A stretch of 64,000 bases of DNA. Origin: Betaproteobacteria bacterium. GTDB lineage: Bacteria; Pseudomonadota; Gammaproteobacteria; Burkholderiales; Usitatibacteraceae. Below the pieces are notes generated by a model, which was given only the letters and a program-made list of their open reading frames with translations, had not been told where the DNA came from and did not search any database. The stretch's first letter is position 1, and every line of letters begins with the position of its first letter. The position numbers and the translations under genes are program-made. The stretch is taken from assembly GCA_031409495.1 (NCBI GenBank), contig JANNXI010000268.1:2075-66074 (forward strand). Direction: 5' to 3'. Shown piece after piece: positions 1,695 to 54,990 of the stretch.

Positions 1695-1699
1695 TTAAA

Positions 1700-2771: not shown

Positions 2772-2809
2772 GAATGACTTGCAACTGCACCTACACAAAA
2801 CCAAAAAAA

Positions 2810-3343: not shown

Positions 3344-3362
3344 CAAATTTTTCCTAAAATAA

Positions 3363-4064: not shown

Positions 4065-4170
4065 TTTTGGCTTCTCCTTTAATGTCGAAATTTTAACGCC
4101 ACCAAACCATCAAAACAATCTACTATAATTGATGATTACCTTCAAATAATTTGAATAAACAGGATTCCCT

Positions 4171-5142: not shown

Positions 5143-5242
5143 AAATATATTGCTATTGCTTTAACCCGTTTGATGGTCATGCCGCGATTAAGCTACACCA
5201 AGCGCATTTTTAGCGCAATTTCCATCCACTATTGGAGGCAAC

Positions 5243-36355: not shown

Positions 36356-37717
36356 TTAGATGGTTTGGAATGGGTAAACGGAACCCAGCTGCAAGATTTG
36401 GGTTAGGCTATCCAGCGCCGCGCGGGATTCATCGAGCAATTGCGGATCACCCAAATCTGCCTCAGCCATACGATCCCGATAATGCTGCTTTACCCACGTC
36501 GTAAGCGTGGTGTACAGCGCCGGGGTAAGCAACACGCCAGGATTTACGGCGGCAGCTTCGGTTGCGGTTAATTCAACGCGCAGCCGGAGGCAGGCGGGGC
36601 CGCCACCGTTGCGCATGCTTTCACGTAGATCCATCACCAGCACTTTTTTAATCGGTGTCAATGCCGCTTCCGTCAGCCCTTGTAAATAATGCCAAACCCG
36701 CGCGTTATTCTTACATTCACTCGGCACCAGCAACATCATGCTGCCATCGGCTTGGCTTAATAACTGGCTATTAAACAAATAGGAACTTACGGCGTCGGCC
36801 ACACTTACCGCGTTGCTCGGCACCACAACAGCCACAAAACTGGCGCCTTGTTTTTGCTTTAGCTCCGCGATCACAGCCGCTTGATCTAAAAACGCCTGCT
36901 CATGACAAAACAATACATTACCGTTACCAACAGCAATTACGTCGTTGTGAAACACTCCTGCGTCAATCACGTCGGGATGTTGCTGTGCGTAAACCACATG
37001 CGCGTCAGAAAGCCCGTGTAGGCGTGCCACCGCCTGCGAAGCTTCAAGGGATTGCCGCGCGGGAAAGCGCTTCGGCGCAGGTTTAGAAGTATCAAAACCA
37101 TGCGCGCCATAGACAAAAAACTCTACCCCGCGTTGACCATACTCTGCACAAAACCTGGTGTGGTTAGCCGCACCCTCGTCGCCCAAGGCCGGACAGTTTT
37201 GCAGCGCGCCGTGATGCGCAAAATATTGCGCATTGGGAAACATCGCCTGCAACAATCTGCTCGTTTGCGGATGCTCCATCGCCCGATGAAATTTATTGTT
37301 TAAATTTGCCGCAGTAAAATGTACGCGGCCATCAGCCGTATTGGCCGATGGGCTCACCGTGGCGGCGTTGGCCGTCCACATAGATGAAGCACTACACACG
37401 CTATTGAATATTGCAGGTGCATTTTTTACCGCTACGCTAATCACTTGCGCATCGCTACCAACAAAGCCTAATGCCTGCAAAGCCCCTATATTCGGGCGTT
37501 CGTGGGGTGCAAATACGCCTTGCGAAAAGCCCTGATCATGCAGGGCCTTCATTTTATCAAGCCCTTGCAGCGCGGCAAGCTTAGGGTTAGCGACTGCACC
37601 CTGATTATTGCTCGACGCAATATTGCCAAAAGATAAGCCACTGTAATTATGCGTGGGCCCGACTAAACCGTCGAAGTTAAACTCAGTAGTACGTGCTTTA
37701 GGTAATGGCGTTTGCAT
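36356..37717 (-). CDS. astB: N-succinylarginine dihydrolase
   Basis: [24 protein letters not shown] is the AstB N-terminal signature. About 450 aa, in an AST operon context. Confidence 0.92.
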
Positions 37718-37728
37718 GATTTATCTTT

Positions 37729-39213
<1,485 letters not shown>

Positions 39214-39282: not shown

Positions 39283-40335
39283 TTAGGCGCGGGCAGACAG
39301 CGCAACAATTCTCGCTTGATCCCCAGCTACCAATCCTAATGCCTTCAAGATGTCCGTATTTAGGGGAATTACAGCCTGCTCTTTTATTTGCTGAGGAGTG
39401 AGCGATGATGCGAAAACACAAGCGCGAAAATCTATTTTTTTAGTGTTGGCAACTATATATCGAGTCGGCGCTGATGCAGATTCTGGCGCATTGTCAAAAG
39501 CAGCTACCGTCACGGCAAAGCTTTGCGCGACCGCGCGGACATCATCCACATTACATTCAACTGTAGGCCCCGCATCAAAAATATCCACATGCCCTTCATA
39601 GCGAAAACCTTCACTTTCCAACATGCTGCGTGCAGGCAGCGTCGCCTCGTGGGTTTTGCCAATAACCGCCTGCGCTTCGGGTGTCAAAAATGAGCTGTAA
39701 AGCGGATGCTTGGGCATCAGCTCCGCCACAAATGATTTTTGCCCGATACCTGTTAAATAGTCGGCTTGGGAGAACTCCATGGAGAAAAAGTGGCGGCCTA
39801 AACTTTCCCAAAACGGCGATGCGCCTTTTTCGTCCGATACGCCACGCAGTTCAGCAATAATTTTCTGTGAAAACAGCGCGCGGAACTGCGCGATAAACAA
39901 GAAACGACACTTTGACAACAGCGCGCCATTTTTCCCCACCCGATATTCAGGGTCTAAAAACAAAGAACAAAGCTCGGAGTGGCCGGTGTGGTCGTTTGAT
40001 AAAAATAACGTGGGCGTTTGCGTAAAAATACCGAGCTCTTTAGACGCGTGCACCACTTGACCCACACGGTAGGAATACCAAGGCTCACGCAAGCCCACGG
40101 CTGCTGCCACAGCACAAGTACCGACAATTTTGTGCTGCGCTAAGTCTTCCAGCACAAACATGTAAATTTGCTCGGCGGGTTCCGCATCACCCGAAAAAGA
40201 CGCCACCGACGCGGCAATGCGTGCTTCCAATAACTTTTCATTATTGGGCAACGTGGTTAAACCGATGCCGGTTTTAGCGGCAAGCTGCATCAGCGCTGCT
40301 AGATCATCTGTTGCAATAGGGCGAATGCACATCAT
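39283..40335 (-). CDS. astA: arginine N-succinyltransferase (beta subunit type)
   Basis: MCIRPIATDDLAALMQLAAKTGIGLTTLP...YSYRVGQVVHAS is typical of AstA/AruG. It pairs with an upstream paralogue as in Pseudomonas aruFG. Confidence 0.88.
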   Translation of the reverse strand: MMCIRPIATDDLAALMQLAAKTGIGLTTLPNNEKLLEARIAASVASFSGDAEPAEQIYMFVLEDLAQHKIVGTCAVAAAVGLREPWYSYRVGQVVHASKELGIFTQTPTLFLSNDHTGHSELCSLFLDPEYRVGKNGALLSKCRFLFIAQFRALFSQKIIAELRGVSDEKGASPFWESLGRHFFSMEFSQADYLTGIGQKSFVAELMPKHPLYSSFLTPEAQAVIGKTHEATLPARSMLESEGFRYEGHVDIFDAGPTVECNVDDVRAVAQSFAVTVAAFDNAPESASAPTRYIVANTKKIDFRACVFASSLTPQQIKEQAVIPLNTDILKALGLVAGDQARIVALSARA

Positions 40336-40359: not shown

Positions 40360-41481
40360 TTAGCGCGTGGTATTTGCGGGCAAATACACCGGAACTATTC
40401 GCACATCATCGCCATTGACAATTTCTAGCGCTGCCATCATTTCTTCCGACAGCACCACCGTGTCGCCTAAGCCCGCCGCTACGTTAGCCAAGGTGGCGCG
40501 GAAGCGCTCGGTTTCGGTGTTAGCGATGATACAAAGCTGGGCATTTTCAAGCGTCCGCTGGCTTGGCAAAGTACCCAGTGATGGTACGCGCGCGGCCGCT
40601 TTAGCCGCAATGTGCAGGTTCGATGCTGTCGAAGTGTCACCGGCAATCGCACGTTTTTTTATGCTATTAAATACGCTGCGAAGCCCCGAAATACGGGCCT
40701 CTACAGTCGGTCCGCCGTCAAAAATATCAATATAGGTATCGGCTTCAAAGCCTTCATCCATCAAAATGGAAAACGGCAATTCACCCACAGGATGTAATTG
40801 ACCAATAGCTAACTTTGCATCAGCCGGCAGGAGCGGGACATAAATTGGATATTGCGGCATTAGTTCAGCAATAAAGGTTTTGCTGCGCCCGCCAGACAGC
40901 TGCTCGGCTTGCGGATAACCCATGTTAAAAAAGCGTTTGCCGACGGCATTCCAAAACGGTGAATTACCTTCGTCGTCACACACGCCCGGACTTTCAGCCG
41001 CAATGCGCTCAGGAAAGCGATTCGCATGCTCCGCCATAAATAACAGCCGCGCTCTGGACAGCAACTGCGGCAGCGTGCCATCTTGGTGTTCGGGCTTGAT
41101 ATAAAAGGACGACAGCAGCGCCAAACCAGTCAAATCATGACACAAATGCAGCGAGTGAATTTTATTAGACACCCCAAGCTGTTGGGAGGCATGCACAATA
41201 ATTTCGTTGCGGTAGCTATAAAAACGATCATGAAAGCCAGCAGACGCAACAATACCACTCGTACCAATTACTTCGCCCGTAGCGGTATTTTCCAATACAA
41301 AAAAATAGGATTCCTCACCACACACATCCACTTCAGCAGCCAAAGAATGGATTGAATTGGCAATTTTATCCCGCAGCCGGTCATGGTCAGGAGGCAAGGA
41401 GGTAATACCCACCACACTCACCGCAGCAATAGCTTCTACAGCGGACAAATCGGCAAGGCGACAGGGTCTAAGTACAATCAT
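40360..41481 (-). CDS. aruF: arginine/ornithine N-succinyltransferase (alpha subunit type)
   Basis: Start at MIVLRPCRLADLSAV (41481), 10 nt after the astC stop. Paralogue of astA (YSYRNEIIVHAS). Confidence 0.85.
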   Translation of the reverse strand: MIVLRPCRLADLSAVEAIAAVSVVGITSLPPDHDRLRDKIANSIHSLAAEVDVCGEESYFFVLENTATGEVIGTSGIVASAGFHDRFYSYRNEIIVHASQQLGVSNKIHSLHLCHDLTGLALLSSFYIKPEHQDGTLPQLLSRARLLFMAEHANRFPERIAAESPGVCDDEGNSPFWNAVGKRFFNMGYPQAEQLSGGRSKTFIAELMPQYPIYVPLLPADAKLAIGQLHPVGELPFSILMDEGFEADTYIDIFDGGPTVEARISGLRSVFNSIKKRAIAGDTSTASNLHIAAKAAARVPSLGTLPSQRTLENAQLCIIANTETERFRATLANVAAGLGDTVVLSEEMMAALEIVNGDDVRIVPVYLPANTTR

Positions 41482-41491
41482 GGCGTTCTTT

Positions 41492-42859
<1,368 letters not shown>

Positions 42860-42926
42860 TGTCGGCAGCTGCGCCACCAACCAAACACTAATTATTACAC
42901 CGCCAGTGTAATCGTGAACAAAAATT

Positions 42927-42947
42927 ACGCAATTCAGTTTTGCGACA
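42927..42947 (-). promoter_or_regulatory. candidate ArgR half-site upstream of the AST operon
   Basis: The minus strand reads TGTCGCAAAACTGAATTGCGT. As I recall, the Pseudomonas ArgR consensus is TGTCGC-N8-AA-N5. It lies 140-160 nt upstream of astC. Confidence 0.4.
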
Positions 42948-42961
42948 TGCGTTTATACAAA

Positions 42962-44068
42962 TTACGTCAACCCTACTTGTTCCGCAGCGCCTGCAGGTTC
43001 GGCACGCTCAGACACAACCGCAGCACCAACGCCATTGTGCTGAAACTGGTTATCGCGCACGAAGCGTTGGTTGCGTTGTTCGCGCGGCGTTACCTCAAAG
43101 TGGGCGCGATAAGCGCTAGAAAAATGCGGTCCCGACGAAAATCCACAGCTCAAGCCAATTTGCAAAATCGATTGGCTAGTTTGTTGCAGCAATTGCCGTG
43201 AGCGATTGAGCCGCAACTGCAAATAGTAGCGCGACGGCAAACTATCAAGGTATTGCTTAAACAGCCGCTCAAGTTGCCGCCGCGATACGCCGACGAGGCG
43301 AGCAATCTCTTCAGTGGGTAGCGGCTCTTCAAAATTCGCCTCCATCAGCGCCACAGCTTCGGTTAGCTTTGGTTGCCCACCGCCGATGCGCGCAGAAATC
43401 GGCACCCGTTGATTTTCGCTACCTGCGCGGGCACGCTCAATGCCGAAGTGTTCGATCACTTCGGCAACCAAATCAGCATCGTGGCTTCTTCGCAGAATCT
43501 CTAGCAACATGTCGAGCACTGCTGCGCCATTTGGGCAGCTCGCACTAGCCCCATCTAATTCAAACAAATTACTAGACACAATCACCGTCGGAAAATCTTC
43601 TGCAAACAGGGTTGCATAAGTCCAATCAATGGTCGCACGAAGGCCGCCCAGCAGCCCTGCCCGCGCCAGTAAGTATGCCCCAGTGCCAATACCACCCAGT
43701 GTGGGGACACCCGTATTCTGATCGCGCAAAATACGGTGATTGATACCGCGTAGCCACGCAATCACATTTTCAAATCCGCGCTGTGGCAGCGGGCTAGCGC
43801 TCAATACCAGCAGGGAACCCAATGCCCCCACATTGGCCATCGCTGTATGTACAGAAATTACCAACCCGCAACTAGACGTAACAGGGGCACCAGTCTCAGA
43901 AATTAACACTACTTCATAGCTGTCAACGGCTAATAGTTGGTTGACGACGGCATAAAGTTCAGTACAACTCGCCATTGATGCCAATGAAAATTTCGGCAGC
44001 AAAAATATGCCCAGGCGCTGCACTGCAGGCGTAAGCGCTGTTGACTGCGAGTGCACCGCGATTGCCAT
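42962..44068 (-). CDS. argR: AraC/GlxA-family transcriptional regulator, ArgR-like by synteny
   Basis: C-terminal AraC HTH (IARLVGVSRRQLERLFKQYL...SILQIGLSCGFSSGPHFSSAYRAHF). N-terminal DJ-1/PfpI-like domain. Last gene of an aotJQMOP-type operon, as in P. aeruginosa. Confidence 0.75.
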   Translation of the reverse strand: MAIAVHSQSTALTPAVQRLGIFLLPKFSLASMASCTELYAVVNQLLAVDSYEVVLISETGAPVTSSCGLVISVHTAMANVGALGSLLVLSASPLPQRGFENVIAWLRGINHRILRDQNTGVPTLGGIGTGAYLLARAGLLGGLRATIDWTYATLFAEDFPTVIVSSNLFELDGASASCPNGAAVLDMLLEILRRSHDADLVAEVIEHFGIERARAGSENQRVPISARIGGGQPKLTEAVALMEANFEEPLPTEEIARLVGVSRRQLERLFKQYLDSLPSRYYLQLRLNRSRQLLQQTSQSILQIGLSCGFSSGPHFSSAYRAHFEVTPREQRNQRFVRDNQFQHNGVGAAVVSERAEPAGAAEQVGLT

Positions 44069-44071
44069 AGG

Positions 44072-44845
44072 CTACTTCAAATTACCGGACAAAAACTGTT
44101 GCAGACGCTCACTTTGCGGCCGCGCCAGCACTTCGCGCGGGTTACCCTGCTCTTCGATGAGGCCTTTATGGAGAAATACCACGTGGTTTGATACCTCGCG
44201 CGCGAAACCCATTTCATGTGTCACCACAATCATCGTGCGGCCTTCCGCGGCCAAATCGCGCATGACTTTCAGCACTTCACCAACTAACTCTGGATCAAGC
44301 GCTGAAGTTGGCTCGTCGAAAAGCATCACTTCTGGTTCCATCGCTAGCGCACGTGCAATGGCGACCCGTTGCGCCTCACCACCCGATAAATGCGCCGGAT
44401 AGGTATCCGCGCGGTGGGACACCCCAACCCGCTCCAGTAACGCTTGAGCGCGCTCAATTGCCTGCGCCTTGCTCACGCCCAGCACATGAATCGGGGCTTC
44501 GATAATATTTTCAAGCGCGGTCATGTGCGCCCATAAGTTAAAATGCTGAAACACCATCGCAAGCTTGGTGCGCATGCGCTGCAGCTGCCCCACATCCGCG
44601 GCCTTTAATGCGCCAGCTTTGTCAGAAACAAGCTTTAACTCCTCACCACACACCGTAATTTTGCCCTCGTAAGGCGCTTCGAGCATATTGATGCAGCGGA
44701 GCATGGTGCTTTTACCGGAGCCGCTTGAACCAATCACACTAATGACGCTGCCCGCATTAGCGGAAAGCGAAACGCCACGCAGCACTTCATTACTGCCGTA
44801 GCGCTTTTTTAGATTTTCAACGAGCAGTTTTTGCATAATTTTCAA
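44072..44845 (-). CDS. aotP: basic amino-acid ABC transporter ATP-binding protein
   Basis: Walker A GSSGSGKST, signature LSGGEAQRVAIARAL, Walker B MLFDEPTSALD. Confidence 0.9.
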   Translation of the reverse strand: MKIMQKLLVENLKKRYGSNEVLRGVSLSANAGSVISVIGSSGSGKSTMLRCINMLEAPYEGKITVCGEELKLVSDKAGALKAADVGQLQRMRTKLAMVFQHFNLWAHMTALENIIEAPIHVLGVSKAQAIERAQALLERVGVSHRADTYPAHLSGGEAQRVAIARALAMEPEVMLFDEPTSALDPELVGEVLKVMRDLAAEGRTMIVVTHEMGFAREVSNHVVFLHKGLIEEQGNPREVLARPQSERLQQFLSGNLK

Positions 44846-44867
44846 TCACTTTTTATCATCAAAACCA

Positions 44868-44900
44868 CCTGAAGACGCCCTATAATAGGGCGCCTTCAGG
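44868..44900. repeat. REP-like palindrome (family copy 5)
   Basis: CCTGAAGACGCCCT-ataat-AGGGCGCCTTCAGG (one mismatch), inside the operon between aotO and aotP. Confidence 0.8.
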
Positions 44901-44909
44901 GTATCAAAA

Positions 44910-46034
44910 TTAAGCACTCAACAAGTTTCCAGTTTTAAATGCTGTCGCACTCGCTACCTTTGCCAAACGCATGCCCACGGTTGCAAAGTAACGATTCTCG
45001 CGCGCGTACAACACGCCGGAAGTTTTGCAATAAAACTGTTTTACAGCACCGCTGATTGGGTCAATTACCTCAGCAATTAAATCGCCCGCCGTTACGACAT
45101 CACCCGGCTTACGCATAAACGCCACCACGCCAGCCACATCAGCTTCAAGCGCTTCCGAACCCGCAAGTGGGGTAGCGCCATGCACTAACGCTGGCAGCAC
45201 CGGTACGGCATCTGTGGCCACTGCAACAATGCCACGGTGAATCAAAAAGTCAATTATCGCGCTCGCATCTTTAGCCGCCTGATCATGCCCCACATCCGTT
45301 TGCCCACGTAATTCAACCGTTACCGCTAAACACGCCATCGCAATAGGTGCGGCAGGAAAAGCCCCCGCCAATTGCCACCATGTTTGCGAACAGGCTTCAT
45401 CAAACGGATTATCGCCACTTTCGGTCGCCAACAAAGTAGCGTGGGCACCCATGGCACGCGCCAATGGCTCACATTGCGGCCACAAAGGTGTGCCCGTATA
45501 AAGATGCAGTACAGCGTCAGAATCACAGTGCAAATCTAGTACCGCATCGGCATCACAAGCTAGGCTCATTAATACATGGCGCATGCTCGCGAGCTCACTT
45601 GCGGGCTGATTCGCCGCTAAGTGCGCGCGCATGGCGGCGCGGATAATTTTGGTGTTTTCAGCTTCACTACTGGTTAAATTAGCGGCCAATTGGTCTTTAA
45701 TAGCTAAAAATAAAGCCGGATAATGCCGATTAAAATTTTCACCCGTGGCGGCATCAAACCGCCCCAATTGGCTGCGTAACACCGTTTGCGCCAAGCCAAT
45801 CGGGTTTGCCACTGGCACCACCACAACTTCACCGCGCAACTGTTGATTGACCTCTAAATGTGCCAGCGTTTGCCGCAAATGATGGGCGACGAGCATACCG
45901 GGAAGCTCATCGGCATGCAGAGACGCCTGAATATAAATTTTTTCACCAGCACCAGGCGTGCCATAGTGAAAGCTAACAATTTCTCGCTGCGTACCAATAT
46001 AACTGCTGCTCAGCGAATGATGTTTTTTAATCAT
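44910..46034 (-). CDS. aotO: succinylglutamate desuccinylase/aspartoacylase-family protein
   Basis: IQASLHADELPG and ...DLHCD... zinc-carboxypeptidase-like motifs. It sits between the permease and ATPase genes, as aotO does. Confidence 0.7.
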   Translation of the reverse strand: MIKKHHSLSSSYIGTQREIVSFHYGTPGAGEKIYIQASLHADELPGMLVAHHLRQTLAHLEVNQQLRGEVVVVPVANPIGLAQTVLRSQLGRFDAATGENFNRHYPALFLAIKDQLAANLTSSEAENTKIIRAAMRAHLAANQPASELASMRHVLMSLACDADAVLDLHCDSDAVLHLYTGTPLWPQCEPLARAMGAHATLLATESGDNPFDEACSQTWWQLAGAFPAAPIAMACLAVTVELRGQTDVGHDQAAKDASAIIDFLIHRGIVAVATDAVPVLPALVHGATPLAGSEALEADVAGVVAFMRKPGDVVTAGDLIAEVIDPISGAVKQFYCKTSGVLYARENRYFATVGMRLAKVASATAFKTGNLLSA

Positions 46035-46070
46035 AAATTTTGGAAATAGTTACAAGGGAAAGCATAAAAT

Positions 46071-46763
46071 TTAGTGGGCTTTGCGCACTAAATGCTTCAA
46101 AAAATGCTTTTCAGCCAAACGCGCGAGACCAACCAAGGCAAATGTCATCGCCAAATAAAACAACGCACCAATAATAAAAGCCTCATACGGCAAGTAGTGT
46201 CGCGCATTCACTTCACGCGCCACGCCCGTCAAATCCATAATCGTGACGGTGCTCGCAAGGGAGGTGCCATGCAACATCATGATGACTTCATTGCTATACG
46301 CAGGCAATGCACGACGAAACGCAGCGGGCAGCAAAATACGTACAAACATTTTGACCCGCGTCATGCCCATACTTAATGCTGCTTCCACCTCACCAATGGG
46401 CGTTGCCTTGATGGCACCAGCGAGCATTTCTGTGGTGTAGGCGCAAGTATTAATCGCAAAAGCTAATACCGCACAAAACCAAGCAGATGACAAATAAGGC
46501 CACGCGAAACTCTCACGAATCAACTCAAATTGTCCGGCGCCGTAGTAAATCAAAAATAACTGCACCAGCATCGGCGTGCCGCGAATGAGATAAGTAAAAA
46601 ACCAGATAGGTTTGCTAAACCACGGGTTGTCCGCCGCGCGCAATACCGCCAGCGGCACCGCCGCCGTTAAGCCAATAAGCAAGGCCATAAATAATAGCTG
46701 CAGCGTGACCCACGCGGCGCTCCAGTACTGCGGTAAGCTGTCCCAGATTACTTCAAAGTTCAT
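46071..46763 (-). CDS. aotM: basic amino-acid ABC transporter permease
   Basis: HisM-type permease, about 230 aa, 5 TM, with an EAA-like loop (EVEAALSMGMTRVKMFVRILLP). Confidence 0.88.
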   Translation of the reverse strand: MNFEVIWDSLPQYWSAAWVTLQLLFMALLIGLTAAVPLAVLRAADNPWFSKPIWFFTYLIRGTPMLVQLFLIYYGAGQFELIRESFAWPYLSSAWFCAVLAFAINTCAYTTEMLAGAIKATPIGEVEAALSMGMTRVKMFVRILLPAAFRRALPAYSNEVIMMLHGTSLASTVTIMDLTGVAREVNARHYLPYEAFIIGALFYLAMTFALVGLARLAEKHFLKHLVRKAH

Positions 46764-47449
46764 AATACTGCCGCCCGAACACCCCTATTTACGCGCTTTT
46801 CCAGCCAATTCAAAACTAGAATTGATACGGTCGTAAACACCAAATACAGCACCGCAGCCGCCACATAAAATGTAAATGGCTCGCGCGTGGCACCCGCTGC
46901 TTGCCCCGCCTTTTGCATCATGTCAGTCAAACCAATAACTGATACGAGGGCCGTAGACTTGATCAACACCAACCAGTTATTACTAAAACCCGGCAAGGCG
47001 TAGCGCACCATTTGCGGCAGCGTAATGCGAAAGAATATTTTGCCATTTGACATGCCATAGGCCATGCCCGCCTCCCGTTGCCCCGGAGGAATTGCCATAA
47101 GTGCACCGCGAAAAGTTTCTGTTAGGTACGCACCGAATATAAAACCTATCGTGAGCACACCTGCAACAAACGGATTGATATCGATAAAATCGCCATAGCC
47201 GAGCTTAGGTGCAAGGTGATTTACTGCTGTTTGACCGCCATAAAAAATCAACAGCATCAAAATTAAATCAGGTACGCCACGAATTACGGTGGTGTAAACC
47301 GTCGCAATGCCACGTGCCGTACGAGATTTCGATAGCTTCATCGCCGCACCTTGCAGGCCCAGTATCACCGCAATAATCAGCGAGCAAAAAGCCACGCTTA
47401 ACGTAATCAGCGAGCCTTCCAAAATACTGGGCAAGTAACCGTGGAGCAT
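46760..47449 (-). CDS. aotQ: basic amino-acid ABC transporter permease
   Basis: HisQ-type permease (QREAGMAYGMSNGKIFFRITLPQM). 4-nt overlap with aotM. Confidence 0.88.
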   Translation of the reverse strand: MLHGYLPSILEGSLITLSVAFCSLIIAVILGLQGAAMKLSKSRTARGIATVYTTVIRGVPDLILMLLIFYGGQTAVNHLAPKLGYGDFIDINPFVAGVLTIGFIFGAYLTETFRGALMAIPPGQREAGMAYGMSNGKIFFRITLPQMVRYALPGFSNNWLVLIKSTALVSVIGLTDMMQKAGQAAGATREPFTFYVAAAVLYLVFTTVSILVLNWLEKRVNRGVRAAVL

Positions 47450-48321
47450 TATTTTTTAACGGCTGGAGTGGCCGGCGCTGCGGGTGTCGCTGGAGCCGCC
47501 ACTTTCGGCGGCATCACCTTAGCTTCGGTAATGGCATCGCCATACACATCAAAATCAAAGTACTTATTTTGCAGTTTGGTATACTCGCCGTTTGCGCGAA
47601 TCACTTTAATGGCGGCATTGAATTTATCCCGAAGCACCGCATCGTTTTTACGCATCGCCACGCCAGCGCCTAAGCCAAAATACTTTTCATCTTTTAACAA
47701 CGGGCCAAAAAAACTGAAGGCTTTGCCCTGCGCCGTTTTCAAAAAGCCATTTTCAGCGACGATAGCGTCTACGAGTAACGCATCAACCCGACCTGCCACC
47801 AAATCTAAAAACGCCTCATCTTGTTTGGCGTAGCGCTTAATTTCTGAGTCTTTATAGAGCTCAGTCACATAGCGATCTTGGGTAGTAGTGCGTTGAACAC
47901 CAATTTTCTTGCCTTTCATTCCTGCTGGCGTGGTTTCAAGCTTCATACCCGACTTCGCCACAAATCGTGCTGGGGTTTGATAGTACTTATCTGAAAATGC
48001 CACTTGCTTCTTACGCTCATCAGTTATGCTCATGCTCGCGATAATAGCGTCAAACTTACGAGCGTTAAGTGCTGGAATCATGCCGTCCCAGTCTTGCTGC
48101 GTCAATGTACATTCCGCTTTCATTTCCGCACACAAGGCGTTAGCCATGTCGATATCAAAACCCTTCAGCTTGCCATCGGTACCGAGTTGGCTAAAAGGCG
48201 GAAAAGCGCCTTCAACACCAATACGGATTTTTTTCCAATCTGGTGCCTGTGCAATTGCGCTTGAAGTGGCAATCAAAAACACAGCAGTCAAGAATGTTGT
48301 GGTGCAGCGGGAAGATTTCAT
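47449..48321 (-). CDS. aotJ: periplasmic arginine/ornithine(lysine)-binding protein with a Pro/Ala-rich C-terminal tail
   Basis: Signal peptide plus KIRIGVEGAFPPFS...GFDIDMANALC...WDGMIPAL...FDAIIASMSIT (ArgT/AotJ type). The extra tail is PPKVAAPATPAAPATPAVKK. Confidence 0.88.
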   Translation of the reverse strand: MKSSRCTTTFLTAVFLIATSSAIAQAPDWKKIRIGVEGAFPPFSQLGTDGKLKGFDIDMANALCAEMKAECTLTQQDWDGMIPALNARKFDAIIASMSITDERKKQVAFSDKYYQTPARFVAKSGMKLETTPAGMKGKKIGVQRTTTQDRYVTELYKDSEIKRYAKQDEAFLDLVAGRVDALLVDAIVAENGFLKTAQGKAFSFFGPLLKDEKYFGLGAGVAMRKNDAVLRDKFNAAIKVIRANGEYTKLQNKYFDFDVYGDAITEAKVMPPKVAAPATPAAPATPAVKK

Positions 48322-48346
48322 GAGTTCAGGCCTTTAAGAATGTATG

Positions 48347-49651
48347 TTAGTTTTTAGCAGGTGGGGTTATTCTGCTTTGCAAAGCGGATTCGACGATCGG
48401 TACGTAAAGCGGTAGTTTAATTTGTACCGGAACGATGTCCAGATAAATATTTGCCACCGTGTAACGTTCGCTGCCACTTGCAGCGGTGAAGTATCCCAGA
48501 CTATTTGCACCTTTGCTAAATATAAACTCAAACCCTATGTCTGGGCGCTTTTCAGCAGCACCCTTGGGATTGAACGCCAAGCCGATGATACGTTTGTGTT
48601 TGTTATCGATTAAGTTACTCATTACTGTGTAGATAGTGTTGTCCCCCAAGATGGCTGGATAGAACGTTTCGTCACTAAAATAGGGCTTAAAACCTGCCGC
48701 GGTGTGATCGATTTTGGTACCGCTCAACTTTGCCGTGGAGGGTGTGAGCACGCCGGTGCTAAAGTTGAATTTGTCGCCGCTATCGAGATAGGTAATTTTG
48801 GCATTTTTAATATTATACTCAGCAATTTTTTTATCTGCGCTTGCATCGCGAAGATCCGCGAAAATAGCGCCTTTAGCACCAATTACCTCTATGGTGTTGC
48901 CTTGAATAATAGCGGCTGAATCTTCTTCAACACCGAGGCCTAACTTGGTGTTTGCAGTTTGCATCGCGGGCAGTAAGCGACCCAATCTACCACGCTTTAA
49001 AAAATGCTGATCCACAAACATTTCAGCGCCTGCAAATCCCAACCCCACATCTAACTCACGCTCATTACCGAGACTGCCCATCCGCGCCCCGAACTTCAAC
49101 ACGTCCAGCACATCGGGTGCGTCGCGAAACATGGTTTTACTCATGATTGCAGCGCCTGCACTTGTTCCTGCAACCACACCGCCTTTATCAAATAGATTCC
49201 AAATAGCTTCGAGCACCGGCGAACGACTGCCGTCGGCATTAACCAACGCTTGGGTAATCCGCTCTTGCGATCCACCAGAAAAAAATACGCCCTGACTTTC
49301 ATTTACTTTTCGCACTAGCGTTGGGCTACGTGCAGCCGTTTTATAACCTACCTGGGAAGCGGATTCTTTCAACATCGGCGCAACCCGAATGTGTTCAGCT
49401 ACCGCGCCGTGTTTGCTCAAAGACGCAATAATTGATTGCGCTGATTTCTCCGGATTGTCGGCAGCTGTAGCGAATACCGCAAATTTACTACCCTTGCCGC
49501 CTGCCAACGCCACAATCCGTGCCCACACTTCGTCGTTGTCCGCCTTCAGCGCACCACCGATTGGTACTGCAATACCAGCGCCGCCTGCCATCGGCGTTAG
49601 CGAAAGCCAAACCAATGTGCAGCAGAGTTGTAAAATATTTTTTAAGGACAT
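48347..49651 (-). CDS. exported peptidase S51 (cyanophycinase-like) with a C-terminal extension
   Basis: Start at MSLKNILQLCCTLVWLSLTPMAGGAG (signal). VFFSGGSQERITQAL and VVAGTSAGAAIMS match the cyanophycinase GGDQ / GxSAG Ser-nucleophile motifs. Only 25 nt separate its stop from the aotJ start. Confidence 0.75.
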   Translation of the reverse strand: MSLKNILQLCCTLVWLSLTPMAGGAGIAVPIGGALKADNDEVWARIVALAGGKGSKFAVFATAADNPEKSAQSIIASLSKHGAVAEHIRVAPMLKESASQVGYKTAARSPTLVRKVNESQGVFFSGGSQERITQALVNADGSRSPVLEAIWNLFDKGGVVAGTSAGAAIMSKTMFRDAPDVLDVLKFGARMGSLGNERELDVGLGFAGAEMFVDQHFLKRGRLGRLLPAMQTANTKLGLGVEEDSAAIIQGNTIEVIGAKGAIFADLRDASADKKIAEYNIKNAKITYLDSGDKFNFSTGVLTPSTAKLSGTKIDHTAAGFKPYFSDETFYPAILGDNTIYTVMSNLIDNKHKRIIGLAFNPKGAAEKRPDIGFEFIFSKGANSLGYFTAASGSERYTVANIYLDIVPVQIKLPLYVPIVESALQSRITPPAKN

Positions 49652-49882
49652 ATTGTCAAAAATCCGAATGATAGTAACGGCACGGCGCGGCAAAAAATTA
49701 GGGTTACGGCAGTTTGTCACAGCTCATGGCTGTGCGGTGTATCGGCACAATGAATGTGTAATTTGGCGTCGCATTCAGACAAACTAAGATCAGCAATAGC
49801 GACGCTTAAAGAGTACGCAGGCCGCACACCCCAAAATGACGCGCTAAGCATCAACTTGGTGCATTTTCAACGCAAAAACCCC

Positions 49883-49934
49883 ATGCGTTGCATTTTTACG
49901 ACAAACCTGAAACGCACCTTTCAGTTTTGCGACG
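49883..49934 (-). promoter_or_regulatory. two candidate ArgR half-sites in the divergent S51-aot / TonB-receptor intergenic region
   Basis: The minus strand reads CGTCGCAAAACTGAAAGGTGC (49934-49914) and TGTCGTAAAAATGCAACGCAT (49903-49883). Both fit xGTCGY-N8-AA-N5, with starts 31 bp apart. Confidence 0.45.
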
Positions 49935-50111
49935 CGAAGTTGTACTGAAGCGACGCCCGCCTGAGTACGGCTACTTTTTCAAAAATTGAACGCCTACACT
50001 GCAATTTGGAAAAAAGTTTGCATGGCAATGCGGAAAGTCAATTTTAAGTCACTGCCCACAAGCTGTAAGAGACCCTTAGTTTTTTCACTATTTTATGGGA
50101 GCACCGTACAA

Positions 50112-52850
50112 ATGAACCATCGTCAACTCGTTTCTTCGGCAACATCGTCAGCAAGTTTCAAACTTAAGGTTTGTGCGGTTGCCGTATCTGCAGCCATTGC
50201 AGTTATTTCGCAATCCAGTTTTGCCCAAACTCCTGCCCCAACCCCAGTCGAAGTCGCGCCGGCGAAGCCCGTGACCCAAAAAGTCGAGCGTATCGAAATT
50301 ACGGGCTCCTCTATCAAGCGCCTTGAAGGCGAGACTTCGTTACCAGTTCAAATTATCAAGAAAGAAGATATTGAGCGTACCGGCGCCACGACTGCAGCTG
50401 AGTTACTGACTAAAATTTCTGCTAGTGCTGCGGCACTAACCGACGGCGCAAGTTTTTCGGATATCGCCGGACAACGTGGCTTCAGCGGCGCCAATCTGCG
50501 CGGCATTGGCGTTTCATCCACACTCATTTTGCTCAACGGCCGTCGCGTTGCTAACTTTGCATCGCCAGGTGGTGCCAGTGGCGTTGATTTGAACGCAATC
50601 CCATCAGCCGCCATTGCTCGCGTAGAAGTGTTGAAAGACGGCGCCTCGGCTATTTATGGAACTGACGCTATTGGCGGCGTAATTAACTTCATTACCAATA
50701 CCGATTACCAGGGTTTCGATGCCTCTGCCTATGTATCCGACACCCAGCATGGCGGTGCCGGCAAAAATATTTACAGCGTTTCTGCAGGTACTGGTAGCCT
50801 TGCCCGCGATGGCTTCAATATTTTTGGTGTAATTGACTATTCAGAAAATAAAACATTACGCTCAGGCCAGCGTAAGTGGATAGGCTCTGTTTTTCAACCG
50901 GATATTAACCTAGACGTCGGTAGCTCAAACACCTACCCCGCCAACGCGCGCCGTACCCGCGCCAATGGCACAGCAACGGGTTCCCGCTTAAATCCATCAG
51001 CACCCGCTTGTAATCCACCTGCAACCATCTACGCACCAGGCAGCTTTGTTGGTGCCAGCGCTTGCTTGTACGATTACATGCAAGATACCGAGATTTTCCC
51101 AGCGTCAGAGCGCCTATCCGCGATGACTCGCGCGCAATACGTTGTCAACGCTGACCACACTTTATTTGGTGAATATTTGTACAGCAGCACTAATTCAACC
51201 TATAAAATTTCACCGCTGACCGTCACCAATTTGAACTACCCTGCCAATGGTAAATATTATCCAACTAGCTTGGGTGTAACTGGCCCGCTGCGCTTAAATT
51301 TGCGTTTATCCGAAGCCGGTGGCCGTACCAATGAAGTTGAAGCGATCACTGAACGTTTAGTATTTGGTGCAAAGGGTGTTGTGGCAGGTTGGGATTACGA
51401 TGCCGGCGTAAATATTAGTCAAAGTCGCGTAGTTGATGCTTACGTCAATGGTTATGTCGCTACGGCACCGTTTGACACCGCATTCTTAACCGGTAATATC
51501 AATCCGTTTGGCCCATCAGATGCAGCTGGCTTGGCGTTACTAAACAGCACTAAAATTAGCGATAAGGCGCGTGATTCCAAAGGCAGAACTGAAATGGTGG
51601 ACATCAAAGCATCGCGTCCTTTATTTGCTTTAGCCGGTGGCGACGCTGCAGTGGCACTTGGCTTAGAAGTACGCCGTGAGTCGCTAGCCTTCACGCCGTC
51701 AACCCTACTTGCAGCAGGGCAGATTCGTGGTGATGGCGTATCCGTAGGCTTTACGGGAAAGCGCGATGTAAATGCCGCCTACGCAGAGATGAGCCTACCA
51801 TTTACCAGCGCTATCGAGGCACAAGTTGCATTGCGTTACGATGATTACAGCGATGCCGGTAGCAGCACAAACCCTAAGTTTGGTCTCCGTTATGTGCTCA
51901 ACAAACAAGTGCTATTCCGTACGTCTTACAGCACAGGTTTCCGCGCGCCAAGCTTGGCAGATTTGTACGCGCCCTCTCGTACCGGCCAAACCAACGGCAT
52001 CTATAACGATCCATTGGGTTGCATTGTACGTGGCGCCATTAACAACACCAACAACCCTGATTACTGCGGCATTCAGCCCAGCAAGCTTACCGGCGGCAAT
52101 GCTGATTTGAAGCCGGAAAAATCGAAGCAATTCTCAATCGGCACGGCCTTTGAACCGAACAATATATTGAGTGGTAGCCTGGATTACTGGCAAATTGAAA
52201 AGACAGACGTTATTTCCGCACCAGAGGGAGTGCTGTTTACTGACCCAGTCCGTTTCGCGGAGTTTTTTAATCGCGCACCAGCAGATCCAACTCTAGGCGG
52301 TATTCCAGGCTTCATCAACTCGATCGATTCACGCTTGCGTAATTTTGCAGCGCTTAAGACAACGGGCTTTGACGTTTCGGCTGATGTGCGTTTACCTAAG
52401 AACAATTTAGGCAAATTTGGCGTGAGCTTAAACGGCACCTATGTTTTAACCTACAAAACCCAGGCAGGTTCAGGCGCTAACTTTACGAACGGCGTAGGCA
52501 TATTTGTAAATGACCAAATCGTGCAACGCTGGCGCCATACCCTCGCGTTTAACTTTGACCGTGGCCCGTTTGCAGCAACACTGACGCAAACGTTTTACAA
52601 AGGCTATCAGGATCAAAACCCATTGCAAGATGGCAGTATTCGTAACGTAGAAAACTATCAGCTTTGGGACTTAACGGGTTCATACCGCATCAACCAAAAT
52701 TTCCGCGTACGCGCTGGTATTAAAAACGTAGCGGATGCAAACCCTCCTAAATCAAATCAAGTGTTTTTCTTCTTGGCCGGTTACGACCCAAGCTACACAG
52801 ACCCACGTGGCCGTACCTTCTTTGCCAGCGCTAATTACTCGTTTAAGTAA
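50112..52850 (+). CDS. TonB-dependent outer-membrane receptor
   Basis: Start at ATG 50112 (GGGAG RBS) with a signal peptide ending SSFAQ. Plug (ERIEITGSSIKR...VQIIKKEDIERTGATTAAELL...RGIGVSSTLILLNGRR). Long barrel with C-terminal ...FFASANYSFK. Confidence 0.9.
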   Translation: MNHRQLVSSATSSASFKLKVCAVAVSAAIAVISQSSFAQTPAPTPVEVAPAKPVTQKVERIEITGSSIKRLEGETSLPVQIIKKEDIERTGATTAAELLTKISASAAALTDGASFSDIAGQRGFSGANLRGIGVSSTLILLNGRRVANFASPGGASGVDLNAIPSAAIARVEVLKDGASAIYGTDAIGGVINFITNTDYQGFDASAYVSDTQHGGAGKNIYSVSAGTGSLARDGFNIFGVIDYSENKTLRSGQRKWIGSVFQPDINLDVGSSNTYPANARRTRANGTATGSRLNPSAPACNPPATIYAPGSFVGASACLYDYMQDTEIFPASERLSAMTRAQYVVNADHTLFGEYLYSSTNSTYKISPLTVTNLNYPANGKYYPTSLGVTGPLRLNLRLSEAGGRTNEVEAITERLVFGAKGVVAGWDYDAGVNISQSRVVDAYVNGYVATAPFDTAFLTGNINPFGPSDAAGLALLNSTKISDKARDSKGRTEMVDIKASRPLFALAGGDAAVALGLEVRRESLAFTPSTLLAAGQIRGDGVSVGFTGKRDVNAAYAEMSLPFTSAIEAQVALRYDDYSDAGSSTNPKFGLRYVLNKQVLFRTSYSTGFRAPSLADLYAPSRTGQTNGIYNDPLGCIVRGAINNTNNPDYCGIQPSKLTGGNADLKPEKSKQFSIGTAFEPNNILSGSLDYWQIEKTDVISAPEGVLFTDPVRFAEFFNRAPADPTLGGIPGFINSIDSRLRNFAALKTTGFDVSADVRLPKNNLGKFGVSLNGTYVLTYKTQAGSGANFTNGVGIFVNDQIVQRWRHTLAFNFDRGPFAATLTQTFYKGYQDQNPLQDGSIRNVENYQLWDLTGSYRINQNFRVRAGIKNVADANPPKSNQVFFFLAGYDPSYTDPRGRTFFASANYSFK

Positions 52851-52911
52851 TCTCATCGCTAGTTTTGCAGCAACCGTTATGAAGTAGCACAGCAGGTCAA
52901 ATTAACGCTAC

Positions 52912-52949
52912 AAAAATCCCCGCTAGGCATGTGTCTAGCGGGGATTTTT
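52912..52949 (+). terminator. rho-independent terminator of the TonB-dependent receptor gene
   Basis: AAAAATCCCCGCTAG-gcatgtgt-CTAGCGGGGATTTTT, a 15-bp perfect stem with a T-run. Confidence 0.8.
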
Positions 52950-52977
52950 ACATTTATTTTTCGGCCAATAGCGGGCA

Positions 52978-53019
52978 TGTCGCAAAACCAACATTTCATG
53001 TCGCTTTTTGCGCGGTTAG
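52978..53019 (+). promoter_or_regulatory. tandem TGTCGC boxes exactly 21 bp apart (candidate ArgR operator) upstream of the second S51 peptidase
   Basis: TGTCGCAAAACCAACATTTCA followed by TGTCGCTTTTTGCGCGGTTAG. The hexamers start at 52978 and 52999, about 120-145 nt upstream of ATG 53122. Confidence 0.5.
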
Positions 53020-53121
53020 TTTTAGCAAGTAAGCCTATATTTAATTCAAGTTCCATGGAACGAGAACAAAGCACTTGCTGCGTTGCAGCATTTTTAACAC
53101 TATTTCAATACGGATATCAAT

Positions 53122-54789
53122 ATGCGCAATCTATTTGGCAGCATTATCGACACATTTGTAAGTGTTTTCAATATAGCGGCATTCGCTACCGCACTGGGTC
53201 TCACGCTGCTTAGCAGCTCTGCTTACGCAGCTTGCCGCACAGCGGAAGCTGAACCCAACAATAGCGACACCGCGGCTAACATCGATGTGTGCGCGGGCAC
53301 CGCCATATCCGGCACCATTAGTAGTGCATCGGACTTTGACTGGTACAAACTTACCGTCACAGCCCCCGGCACAATTTCTATCAGTCTTAGCCATGCCACC
53401 GGCATAGATCTTGACTGGTACCTATACAAGGCTACTGGAGGCTATATCGCTTACGCCTCCACTTCAGCCAACCCAGAAGCAGGCAGCAAAGCGGTCACCA
53501 CTACTGGCACCTACTATATTCGCGTTAAAAACTATTCCGGCTCGGGCAACTACAGTTTAACTGTGTCGGGACCAATAGCGGCTGGTGGCGGCGGATTACC
53601 TGTACCCACATTTGGCACCTTCAGCGTACCGACTAAAAACCCTGGAGATGCCCCATTTACGGCTGTTGCACCAACTAGCAATAGCTCTGGCGCATTTAGC
53701 TTTACCAGTAGCAACACCGCTGTGGCTACTGTATCCGGCAGCACCATTACTGTCGTAGCTGCAGGAAGCTCAACCATTACTGCGAACCAAGCCGCCACGG
53801 CAACTTATGCTGCCGGCAGCACTAGCGCTACGCTAGCCGTTGGCGCCGCTGTTTGGCCTTGCACACTCCCCACTGGCGTAAACTTAGGCCGCATCGGCAG
53901 CGCAACGGACGTATCACCTGCCACTACGGGCGGCTTTGTATTAATGGGTGGTGGTTCAGATGTTGACGCGGCATTGCAATGGATGATCGGTAAATCCGGT
54001 GGCGGTGACGTACTAGTGTTGCGTTCAACCGGCACCAATGGCTATAACAGCTATCTTCAAGGCTTAGGCACCGTTAATTCTGTGCAGACTTTATTGGTCG
54101 ACAATGCCACCGAAGGCAACAATGCGTGCGTAGGTGAAACGATTAGACGCGCGGAAATGGTGTTTATAGCGGGCGGCGATCAACAAAACTATGTCGATTT
54201 TTTCAAAGGCAAAGCGGTTGGCTCAGCGCTCAACCATTTAATCAACACCAAGAGAGCACCTATCGGCGGCACCAGCGCTGGCATGGCCATCTTAGGGCAG
54301 TACTATCACCCGGGCGGGGCGGCTAATGATTCTTCTTCCCTAGCTAATCCCACTGGAGTTGCTATCGGCAATAATTTCTTGAGCAGCACGTTGCTCAATA
54401 ACGTCATCACCGACACCCACTTCAGTCAGCGCACCCGTCAAGCGCGACTAAGTGCCATGTTAGCAAGCACCATTTACAACTTTGGGGTGACATGGCAAAA
54501 CATGCGTGGCATTGCCTGCGATGAAGGTACGGCCTACGCCCTTGACGCCGCTGGCACTGGTAGAGTATTTGGCAGTAATGCTTGCTTTTTTGTGAAGCCA
54601 ACTGGGGCACCAGAAACATTGGCTGCTAACACTGCCCTCACTTGGAATTTAAACTTTTTAGCGTTAAATGTTTACCGCGTGCCGGGTACCACCACCGGCA
54701 CCAACACCTTCAACATGAACACCTTTAGCGGGACCGGTGGAACGACACAGGCATGGTCTGCTTCAAACGGCACCTTCACGATTCGTTAA
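53122..54789 (+). CDS. exported PPC-like domain - Ig-like domain - peptidase S51 (cyanophycinase-like) protein
   Basis: Signal peptide. EPNNSDTAANI...SDFDWYKLTV...YYIRVKNYSGSGNYSLTVSG resembles a bacterial pre-peptidase C-terminal-type domain. FTSSNTAVATVSGSTITVVAAGSSTITA is BIG2-like. MVFIAGGDQQNYVDFF and IGGTSAGMAILGQ are S51 motifs. Confidence 0.75.
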   Translation: MRNLFGSIIDTFVSVFNIAAFATALGLTLLSSSAYAACRTAEAEPNNSDTAANIDVCAGTAISGTISSASDFDWYKLTVTAPGTISISLSHATGIDLDWYLYKATGGYIAYASTSANPEAGSKAVTTTGTYYIRVKNYSGSGNYSLTVSGPIAAGGGGLPVPTFGTFSVPTKNPGDAPFTAVAPTSNSSGAFSFTSSNTAVATVSGSTITVVAAGSSTITANQAATATYAAGSTSATLAVGAAVWPCTLPTGVNLGRIGSATDVSPATTGGFVLMGGGSDVDAALQWMIGKSGGGDVLVLRSTGTNGYNSYLQGLGTVNSVQTLLVDNATEGNNACVGETIRRAEMVFIAGGDQQNYVDFFKGKAVGSALNHLINTKRAPIGGTSAGMAILGQYYHPGGAANDSSSLANPTGVAIGNNFLSSTLLNNVITDTHFSQRTRQARLSAMLASTIYNFGVTWQNMRGIACDEGTAYALDAAGTGRVFGSNACFFVKPTGAPETLAANTALTWNLNFLALNVYRVPGTTTGTNTFNMNTFSGTGGTTQAWSASNGTFTIR

Positions 54790-54810
54790 AGCCCGTTTTT
54801 AACACCCTCC

Positions 54811-54844
54811 AACGCCATCTTGCGCAAACAAGATGGCGTTTTTT
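54811..54844 (+). terminator. rho-independent terminator
   Basis: AACGCCATCTTG-cgcaaa-CAAGATGGCGTT followed by TTTT. Confidence 0.8.
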
Positions 54845-54990
54845 ATGGCGACCACGCTTGCGCAGCACGCTGTTTCAAACGCTATTTCCGCACATATTTT
54901 GAGCATAAAGTTGAATAAACCACGCGAGACGGTTATGCTTCCTGGTTGCCCAAAATAATCGGGCGTAAATGTGAAAAGTAGCTGCTACTT

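Follow-up and report, generated by a model that had tools for sequence, protein, structure and literature searches.

Do the genes for two exported peptidases of family S51, a TonB-dependent receptor (TBDR) and an arginine uptake operon, which lie side by side in the genome of a Betaproteobacteria bacterium (Burkholderiales; Usitatibacteraceae; GenBank assembly GCA_031409495.1), form a single system for the use of cyanophycin, a polymer of arginine and aspartate? The stretch analysed, hereafter called the window, comprises 64,000 nucleotides of contig JANNXI010000268.1 (positions 2,075 to 66,074 of the forward strand), and all coordinates below count from its first letter. An initial annotation, made from the letters alone, had proposed an extracellular cyanophycin-scavenging locus feeding arginine catabolism. 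The proposal is now supported by a CphZ-type AotO, by a receptor syntenic with the cyanophycinase gene cphE and by conserved ArgR-type boxes, and we put the probability that this is an arginine-controlled cyanophycin utilisation locus at about 0.72. The source genome is 98.6% complete (4.29 Mb in 320 contigs). DNA near-identical to the window is contained in freshwater-sediment metagenome runs of one study.

The genes in question are listed here with the basis of each assignment.

48347..49651, minus strand: S51-1, predicted exported CphE-type cyanophycinase of 434 amino acids (TIGR02069, PDB matches, conserved residues)
50112..52850, plus strand: TBDR of a cphE-linked orthologous group, 912 amino acids (plug and beta-barrel domains; synteny)
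53122..54789, plus strand: S51-2, with signal peptide, PPC domain, Big_2 domain and cyanophycinase-like S51 domain (Pfam)
47449..48321, minus strand: aotJ, periplasmic binding protein of the Lys/Arg/Orn type (TIGR01096, 274.5 bits, cut-off 256.35; signal-like N-terminus)
46760..47449, minus strand: aotQ, ABC permease (BPD_transp_1; HisQ-like)
46071..46763, minus strand: aotM, ABC permease (BPD_transp_1; HisM-like)
44910..46034, minus strand: aotO, predicted cytoplasmic CphZ-type beta-Asp-Arg hydrolase of the M14/AstE-AspA family (PDB 8EIN/8EIP)
44072..44845, minus strand: aotP, ABC ATPase (ABC_tran; HisP-like, 412 bits)
42962..44068, minus strand: argR-like regulator of the AraC family, last gene of the aot operon (HTH_18/HTH_AraC)
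41492..42787, minus strand: astC/aruC, succinylornithine transaminase (TIGR03246, 643.4 bits, cut-off 609.95)
40360..41535, minus strand: aruF-like subunit of arginine/ornithine succinyltransferase (TIGR03243, 384.7 bits, cut-off 284.35)
39283..40335, minus strand: astA/aruG, arginine N-succinyltransferase (TIGR03244, 489.9 bits, cut-off 391)
37729..39204, minus strand: astD, succinylglutamate-semialdehyde dehydrogenase (TIGR03240, 738 bits, cut-off 579.3)
36356..37717, minus strand: astB, N-succinylarginine dihydrolase, last gene of the arginine succinyltransferase (AST) set (TIGR03241, 732.5 bits, cut-off 538.3)

Open reading frames (ORFs) and Pfam matches bore out the gene content and coordinates first described, with two S51 peptidases, a TBDR between them, an aot operon and AST genes. 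On the minus strand S51-1, aotJ, aotQ, aotM, aotO, a hairpin, aotP and the AraC-type regulator form a co-directional run, which is followed, after a promoter region of 174 nt between regulator and astC, by the AST genes. The S51-1 stop codon lies 25 nt before the aotJ ATG, the spacing given earlier. The TBDR gene is divergent from S51-1 across a region of 460 nt, and S51-2 comes next, with its own upstream region and terminator. Judged by hydrophobicity, a heuristic used in place of SignalP, the N-termini of both peptidases resemble signal peptides, as had been claimed, and so do those of the TBDR and AotJ; that of AotO does not.

S51-1 is encoded in an ORF extending from 48347 to 49720 (minus strand), with a likely start at ATG 49651. 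Like S51-2 it matches Pfam Peptidase_S51, and its score with the NCBIfam cyanophycinase equivalog TIGR02069 is 133.2 bits, above the cut-off of 126.6. A PDB search with S51-1 returned as solved relatives solely cyanophycinases (7UQV, 3EN0, 7UQW). Homologues of about 415-430 amino acids number more than 3,000, and many of them carry cyanophycinase as source name; in an alignment of 35 of these, residues Q129, S164, D214, Q215, H216, R220, R222, R225 and E243 are the same in all 35. S51-1 holds the catalytic Ser-His-Glu triad and the Q/D/R/R/R pocket. The motif claim made for the two peptidases stood in part: GTSAG occurs in both and GGDQ in S51-2, whereas S51-1 has GGSQ.

The closest parallels to S51-1 are the CphE enzymes of Pseudomonas anguilliseptica BI and P. 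alcaligenes DIP1 described in PMC3235067, with which it shares a Sec signal, the triad, the pocket and the residue spacing. For the P. alcaligenes enzyme, CphEal, that paper gives Q136, S171, D222, T223, H224, R228, R230, R233 and E251, together with a Sec leader. From Q to S, from S to H and from H to E the distances are 35, 52 and 27 residues in S51-1 and 35, 53 and 27 in CphEal, compared with 31, 42 and 27 in CphB. S51-1 also falls into the same length class (about 420-434 amino acids, against 271 for CphB) and has a long C-terminal extension, as in PMC3235067, where the mature CphEal has a mass of 43.6 kDa versus 27 kDa for CphB. The signal of S51-1 appears to be of the Sec type (hydrophobic residues 6-17 after a Lys, by the same heuristic, which indicated no later membrane span). 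About 150-190 residues extend beyond the catalytic Glu and the TIGR02069 match, in agreement with the ~170 residues first reported for one of the peptidases; this extension matched no Pfam family at E <= 10 and found no informative match in the Atlas, just unnamed clusters under 0.9. On its architecture and residues S51-1 is predicted to be an exported cyanophycinase of the CphE type.

Two observations on cphE-like genes elsewhere may be added. In one genome two such genes stand in tandem next to a receptor (L120, 8796-11184), with 48% and 39% identity to S51-1. In three loci of other Gammaproteobacteria (L136, L137, L138; 29-35% identity) the aligned cphE-like proteins have no Ser/Glu at the catalytic columns; these may be pseudo-enzymes, or artefacts of truncation by the ATG-only start rule.

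The product of aotO, which sits between aotM and aotP, matched PDB entries 8EIN/8EIP with an E-value of 1.1e-79 over residues 10-362 of 374. These structures represent CphZ of Acinetobacter baylyi (AbCphZ), a cyanophycin dipeptide hydrolase (Sharon et al. 2023, PMC9974463; CphZ threshold there: a match to AbCphZ with >70% coverage at an identity >30%). According to the same paper the functional residues of AbCphZ are the zinc ligands H50, E53 and H179, E251, the Asp-binding D181 and K366 and the Arg-binding R102, N112, R113, S216, D222 and E223, and these 12 residues (zinc, water activation, Asp and Arg binding) are conserved in >93% of CphZs. The chain numbering of 8EIN equals the published numbering minus 9, an offset that holds for the types of all 12 residues. 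AotO, aligned to 8EIN by HMMER, is identical at 12 of 12 positions (H40, E43, H169, E241, D171, K359, R92, N102, R103, S206, D212, E213).

By this comparison aotO is predicted to encode a CphZ-type beta-Asp-Arg dipeptidase, and the earlier statement that no isoaspartyl dipeptidase lies in the window was therefore wrong in substance. A genome-wide search for such an enzyme, which the initial annotation had suggested, gave elsewhere one gene of the Asparaginase_2/IaaA type and no IadA. The function of AotO has a published counterpart: in P. aeruginosa, AotO has the same specific beta-Asp-Arg activity as CphZ, and growth on beta-Asp-Arg needs AotO and AotM/AotP of the transporter AotJQMP (PMC9974463).

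The AST pathway follows the aot operon, as had been noted, and is represented by astC, aruF, astA/aruG, astD and astB, without astE. The operon stops at astB, and no match to AstE (TIGR03242) was found at E <= 1e-5 in the 98.6%-complete genome. The sole nearby candidate for succinylglutamate desuccinylation is AotO/CphZ itself, which has the AstE fold. The best NCBIfam model for the AraC-type regulator is that of a paralogue, GbdR (300.5 bits, below the cut-off of 480); from its position and the ARG boxes described below we infer that the regulator is ArgR.

The TBDR is encoded in ORF 49986..52850 (plus strand), with a likely start at ATG 50112. With the curated NCBIfam receptor families its best score was 106.4 bits, for a cut-off of 316.85, and all 25 families listed were far below their cut-offs. 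PDB matches were confined to the plug, residues about 49-245. To examine its linkage we used a sample of 400 other Burkholderiales genomes, which are mutually related and of which 16 are cphE-positive; the 20 cphE loci examined account for 21 of the 22 matches from these 16 genomes. A TBDR orthologue (41-70% identity, at least 94% coverage) directly adjoins cphE in 13 of the 20 loci, divergently in eight and as a tandem, TBDR then cphE, in five. A cphZ gene lies within 10 kb of cphE in 10 loci, and TBDR, cphE and cphZ occur together in nine.

The layout of the window is found complete (TBDR / cphE-aotJQM-cphZ-aotP-argR / AST) in L115, L116 and L119, while in L128 aotJQM-cphZ-aotP-TBDR-cphE are all encoded on the same strand. 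In L124 and L133 the trio is accompanied by a carrier of the DcuC family and an RpiR/SIS regulator in place of Aot and ArgR. The core would therefore be receptor, cphE and cphZ, with carrier and regulator exchangeable. In the reverse direction, 11 of the 13 best TBDR matches outside the source genome (at least 45% identity) adjoin cphE; one of the two exceptions, G068, has its receptor beside nusA, like several paralogues. In a phylogenetic tree a branch with an SH-aLRT support of 99 lies between the 19 cphE-linked receptors and 11 unlinked paralogues (one extra row, other_L158, was an extraction artefact with a very long branch and was disregarded). The TBDR is thus a conserved partner of cphE. 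Conserved synteny suggests beta-Asp-Arg dipeptides or short oligomers as its putative cargo.

The idea that the TBDR is a receptor for siderophores, vitamin B12 or haem, the first two of which the initial annotation had named as what would speak against the proposal, was rejected. The family cut-offs were not reached; upstream of the gene no match to the Fur consensus was found with up to 3 mismatches; and no riboswitch was found at E <= 0.1 in 42700-55200, where the sole Rfam match, BTnc005 (30 bits, gathering score 174.8), was judged to be due to chance.

In the loci with the alternative carrier (L124, 2295-9151; L133, 1818-9220), which come from another Burkholderiales family, the DcuC carrier, cphZ (two copies in L133) and the regulator stand next to the tandem TBDR-cphE. 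The DcuC/YfcC-type carrier is a candidate for an alternative beta-Asp-Arg importer. Receptor paralogues with 35-45% identity were seen beside rimP-nusA in several Burkholderiales, namely in L157 and L159, where nusA was confirmed by Pfam, and probably in L163 and L164.

Regulation by arginine is suggested by short repeated sites. In P. aeruginosa the ARG box has the consensus TGTCGCN6GNAA, and tandem repeats 5 bp apart give a period of 21 bp (PMC10963909); binding of ArgR to tandem ARG boxes has been published for relatives. The window contains the following sites.

49919..49955, minus strand: ARG boxes in tandem, period 21 bp, between cphE and TBDR (consensus of PMC10963909)
49768..49783, plus strand: third, inverted ARG-box-like site, GTCGCATT (recurrence)
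52978..53014, plus strand: two TGTCGC boxes 21 bp apart, 5' of S51-2 (conserved pair)
42932..42947, minus strand: single ARG-box-like site in the AST promoter, TGTCGC-N6-G-N-AT (consensus of PMC10963909)

The two boxes between cphE and the TBDR gene read cGTCGC-TTCAGT-A-C-AA and, after 5 bp, cGTCGC-AAAACT-G-A-AA, the first T of each hexamer not being kept. The strict pattern TGTCGC-N8-AA gave no match because the hexamers here begin with C or G. In the 4.29-Mb genome the region between cphE and the TBDR gene is the only place with the combined pattern GTCGC-N8-AA-N6-GTCGC-N8-AA, in a single copy. Of 14 divergent cphE/TBDR regions, whose proteins are just 45-70% identical, 10 have a tandem GTCGC pair on the cphE strand at a distance of 21 bp, and the inverted site GTCGCATT recurs on the plus strand in 8 of the 14. 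A 10-mer common to three sites, that of the AST promoter among them, has 3 exact copies in the window, where 0.35 would be expected by chance. The pair 5' of S51-2 was found in 9 of 18 regions, namely in the window, in L012 and L020 and in the six unlinked long-form loci L013-L018; the eight short-form loci and L019 had none. The arginine-dependent co-regulation whose absence would have spoken against the proposal is suggested at sequence level by ArgR-type tandem boxes conserved before cphE/TBDR and before S51-2. ArgR probably binds these boxes and would control the genes as one regulon.

The second peptidase, S51-2, carries the two N-terminal domains noted initially as PPC-like and Ig-like: Pfam identified PPC, which matches the collagen-binding domains of the clostridial collagenases ColG/ColH (E 1e-10 to 1e-15), and Big_2, which was weak in the full-length scan and above the cut-off when the isolated segment was used. 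Its catalytic and pocket residues are Q354, S385, D431, T432, H433, R437, R439, R442 and E468. Thr432 replaces Gln173 of CphB, a replacement that CphEal shares, while three of the pocket positions that S51-2 keeps are occupied by T, N and K in PepE of Escherichia coli.

The family of S51-2 comprises at least 518 proteins at E <= 1e-5 among 8000 candidates scored, and its members are encoded in 488 stretches of species-representative genomes. Three forms were distinguished: long (with Big_2), short and Bacteroidota. All five genomes with an unlinked long-form S51-2 carry cphE. In the order sample four of six S51-2-positive genomes were cphE-positive, compared with 16 of 400 overall, though kinship among the genomes limits their independence and the number of candidates scored was small. 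Clustering of 838 ORFs around 70 of 80 S51-2-centred loci (L022, L044, L055, L056, L067, L075 and L078-L081 were left out, most being short or having the match near an end) revealed no universal neighbour. We regard S51-2 as a predicted third kind of cyanophycinase-like enzyme, which forms a separate clade.

As a separate observation, a gene for protein-L-isoaspartate O-methyltransferase (PCMT) adjoins the S51-2-like gene, with smpB near, in nine Flavobacterium-type loci (L069, L070, L074, L076, L085-L088, L091). This adjacency may reflect work on isoaspartyl peptides rather than on cyanophycin, or chance synteny.

Taken together as a pathway, the locus would work as follows. Cyanophycin from lysed producers would be cut outside the cell to beta-Asp-Arg units by S51-1, a role that its homology and residues suggest. 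On the same kind of evidence S51-2 probably helps in the cutting, with its PPC domain as a putative anchor on the insoluble granule. Where beta-Asp-Arg dipeptides or short oligomers are scarce, the TBDR would bring them through the outer membrane, as its synteny with cphE suggests. AotJQMP, by analogy with the published transporter of P. aeruginosa, would carry beta-Asp-Arg across the inner membrane, and cytoplasmic AotO/CphZ, whose family activity is published, would split the dipeptide into Asp and Arg. Arginine would be degraded by the products of the adjacent AST genes. Arginine-bound ArgR would bind the tandem ARG boxes and turn on cphE-aot-argR, TBDR, S51-2 and AST as one regulon, so that intracellular arginine would close a positive loop.

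Several observations weigh against this interpretation. The assignment of S51-1 to CphE comes from architecture and residues, and at one position S51-1 has Gln215, as CphB, where CphEal has Thr223 (PMC3235067). The 7 of 20 cphE loci that have no adjoining TBDR, together with three of three distant cphE-like genes outside the order near which a class-level search found no such receptor, mean that the receptor is not obligatory. A dipeptide of 289 Da should pass porins, which makes the need for a TBDR a matter of inference. The boxes upstream of S51-2 are without the AA of the consensus, and the bare pattern GTCGC-N16-GTCGC is not enriched genome-wide (19 occurrences, against 14 and 15 at neighbouring spacings).

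Most of the other contrary points concern S51-2. With TIGR02069, the sole NCBIfam match of its S51 domain, it scored 66.2 bits, below the cut-off of 126.6. Its family is a fully supported, long-stemmed clade of its own, outside CphB and CphE. In the phylogenetic placement that had been proposed as a check, S51-2 fell with neither CphE nor CphB, and its join to CphB is weak (87/28). The tree consisted of CphB-type, CphE-type and PepE rows, the sole named one being PepE of E. coli K-12, with characterised CphE and CphB not included; row Z_L037, an extraction artefact with a very long branch, was removed from the later alignment. TBDR and cphE accompany S51-2 in just six of the 80 S51-2-centred loci (L012, L019, L020, L021, L023, L026), all of them proteobacterial, and relatives from Bacteroidota lie among housekeeping genes (thymidylate synthase, PCMT, SmpB, enoyl-CoA hydratase). 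Finally, the genome is predicted to make its own cyanophycin.

The alternative that survives best, though we consider it unlikely, keeps all the components and divides the work differently. S51-2 alone would act extracellularly and release soluble oligomers, the TBDR would import these, and a periplasmic S51-1 would trim them to dipeptides for AotJQMP, an arrangement like that of a polysaccharide utilisation locus. Oligomers explain the need for a TBDR more readily than a dipeptide does, PPC, a domain typical of secreted proteases, is present on S51-2 alone, and the signal of S51-1 is of the Sec type only; CphEal produced in E. coli had its signal peptide cleaved and was exported at least to the periplasm (PMC3235067). 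However, in 13 loci with cphE and TBDR there is no S51-2 within 10 kb, so that cphE must there reach the polymer itself, and the CphE enzymes of Pseudomonas occur extracellularly and release dipeptides (PMC3235067). An extracellular S51-1 is therefore preferred.

To a second alternative we assign a low probability. It holds that only cphE-aot(cphZ)-argR-AST is a cyanophycin/arginine system, the cargo of the TBDR being unrelated, the substrate of S51-2 being another one (e.g. isoAsp peptides) and the promoter region merely shared. The sub-threshold score and separate clade of S51-2, the many relatives of S51-2 outside cyanophycin contexts, which are the majority, and the 7 of 20 cphE loci that lack a receptor would all fit. 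So would the receptor paralogues with 31-45% identity, which in eight loci are next to rimP-nusA, the gene of a periplasmic binding protein, YchF or other unrelated genes; these neighbours share no substrate theme and therefore give no substrate hint for the wider receptor family. On the other hand, the receptor stays next to cphE even where the orientation, the inner-membrane transporter or the regulator differs, and the linked receptors lie on one side of a supported branch. As for S51-2, it keeps the equivalents of Q101, D172, R178, R180 and R183, at three of which PepE deviates (T, N, K), its tandem boxes are kept where it is unlinked, and it co-occurs with cphE.

The remaining alternative concerns the source of the polymer. 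On contig C284, at about 739-6480, cphB (249 bits), cphA1 (1090.6 bits, cut-off 850) and a cphA'-like gene stand in a row, and the bacterium would therefore be a cyanophycin producer too. That the locus mainly recycles CphA1/CphA' polymer of the cell itself or of its kin, possibly exported, rather than cyanobacterial cyanophycin, agrees with this row of genes, with the presence of cphA1 in four of five cphE-positive relatives checked and with the export of beta-proteobacterial polymer proposed in a preprint (Price et al.), but we judge it the least probable of the three, as an intracellular cphB adjoining cphA1 would already serve internal turnover, the two polymer sources are not mutually exclusive, and one relative, G384, has kept TBDR-cphE-aot-argR-AST with neither cphA1 nor a cphB-type match, which favours scavenging as the role of the locus.

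Among described systems the aotJQMOP-argR operon of P. aeruginosa (PMC9974463) has the same gene order, an AotO with the 12 residues, a terminal AraC-type regulator, ARG boxes and AST genes nearby. The window adds the cyanophycinase gene 25 nt upstream of aotJ, the TBDR and the second S51 peptidase, whereas P. aeruginosa, according to the text of that paper, has no recognisable cyanophycinase. Table 1 of PMC9974463 records clusters of cyanophycinase and cphZ within 5 kb in 32 of 50 genomes. The two genes are within 5 kb in the window as well; receptor, PPC-bearing second peptidase and ARG boxes do not figure in the text of that article. With all three genes present, cphA1 being unlinked here, the source genome belongs to the less frequent class of that table (41 genomes). 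A cyanophycin utilisation locus of Salinivirga cyanobacteriivorans L21-Spi-D4 (Bacteroidota; Ben Hania et al. 2017), cited in PMC10206079, likewise groups cyanophycinase genes, a dipeptidase and a transporter for scavenging; the window differs from what is reported there by its classical proteobacterial TBDR, CphZ, ABC importer and ArgR control. In Citromicrobium sp. JLT1363 a gene for a TonB-dependent transporter (TBDT) adjoins a cyanophycinase gene, and from that adjacency cyanophycin or its products were inferred as the substrate (Tang et al. 2012, PMC3400609). That case, as described, is one alphaproteobacterial genome without conservation analysis.

Known in print are therefore clusters of cyanophycinase and cphZ, scavenging clusters with transporters and one adjacency of a TBDT and a cyanophycinase. 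In the searchable literature, outside which subscription papers and supplements fall, only Tang et al. 2012 ties a TBDT to cyanophycinase. The conserved proteobacterial receptor group linked to cphE and cphZ, the connection of cutting, uptake and catabolism through ARG boxes, and the PPC-bearing S51 clade in the regulon were not found there and appear to be new.

In the carbohydrate utilisation (CUT) loci of Xanthomonas a TBDT is combined with a degrading enzyme, an inner-membrane transporter and a regulator, and RagAB is a peptide importer. The window follows the same four-part logic, but its putative substrate is a polyamide and not a carbohydrate, and there is no SusD/RagB partner. We tentatively propose, at somewhat less than even odds, that the TBDR founds a proteobacterial group for beta-Asp-Arg (oligo)peptides, that S51-2 represents a third, PPC-tethered clade of cyanophycinases, and that with CphE, CphZ, an inner-membrane importer and ArgR they make up a 'polyamide utilisation locus'. 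If true, freshwater Burkholderiales would have in it an equivalent, for a nitrogen polymer, of polysaccharide utilisation loci.

Lysis of cyanobacteria and other producers sets free cyanophycin, and with it a large pool of fixed nitrogen. Many bacteria can use the cyanophycin dipeptide, and scavenging at community level has been inferred (Sharon et al. 2023, PMC9974463). The locus offers candidates for passage across the outer membrane and for switching of the pathway, in the form of the receptor group that travels with cphE, the ArgR operator and the PPC-bearing S51 family. Paucibacter, Roseateles and Chitinimonas are among the named relatives in which cphE-type genes occur, and cultivation of some carriers may therefore be feasible.

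Three hairpins punctuate the locus.

52912..52949, plus strand: terminator hairpin after the TBDR gene, 17 pairs
54811..54840, plus strand: terminator hairpin after S51-2, 12 pairs, marking the end of the locus
44868..44900, minus strand: hairpin between aotO and aotP, 15 pairs

The last of these, GC-rich and with a weak T tail, falls within the presumed operon and might act as an attenuator or in RNA stability. Directly after S51-2 lies a gene for an SNF2-family helicase-like protein of 1197 amino acids (54991-58584, plus strand), which has no apparent link to the locus. Its position is kept in L012 and L020, the two closest relatives.

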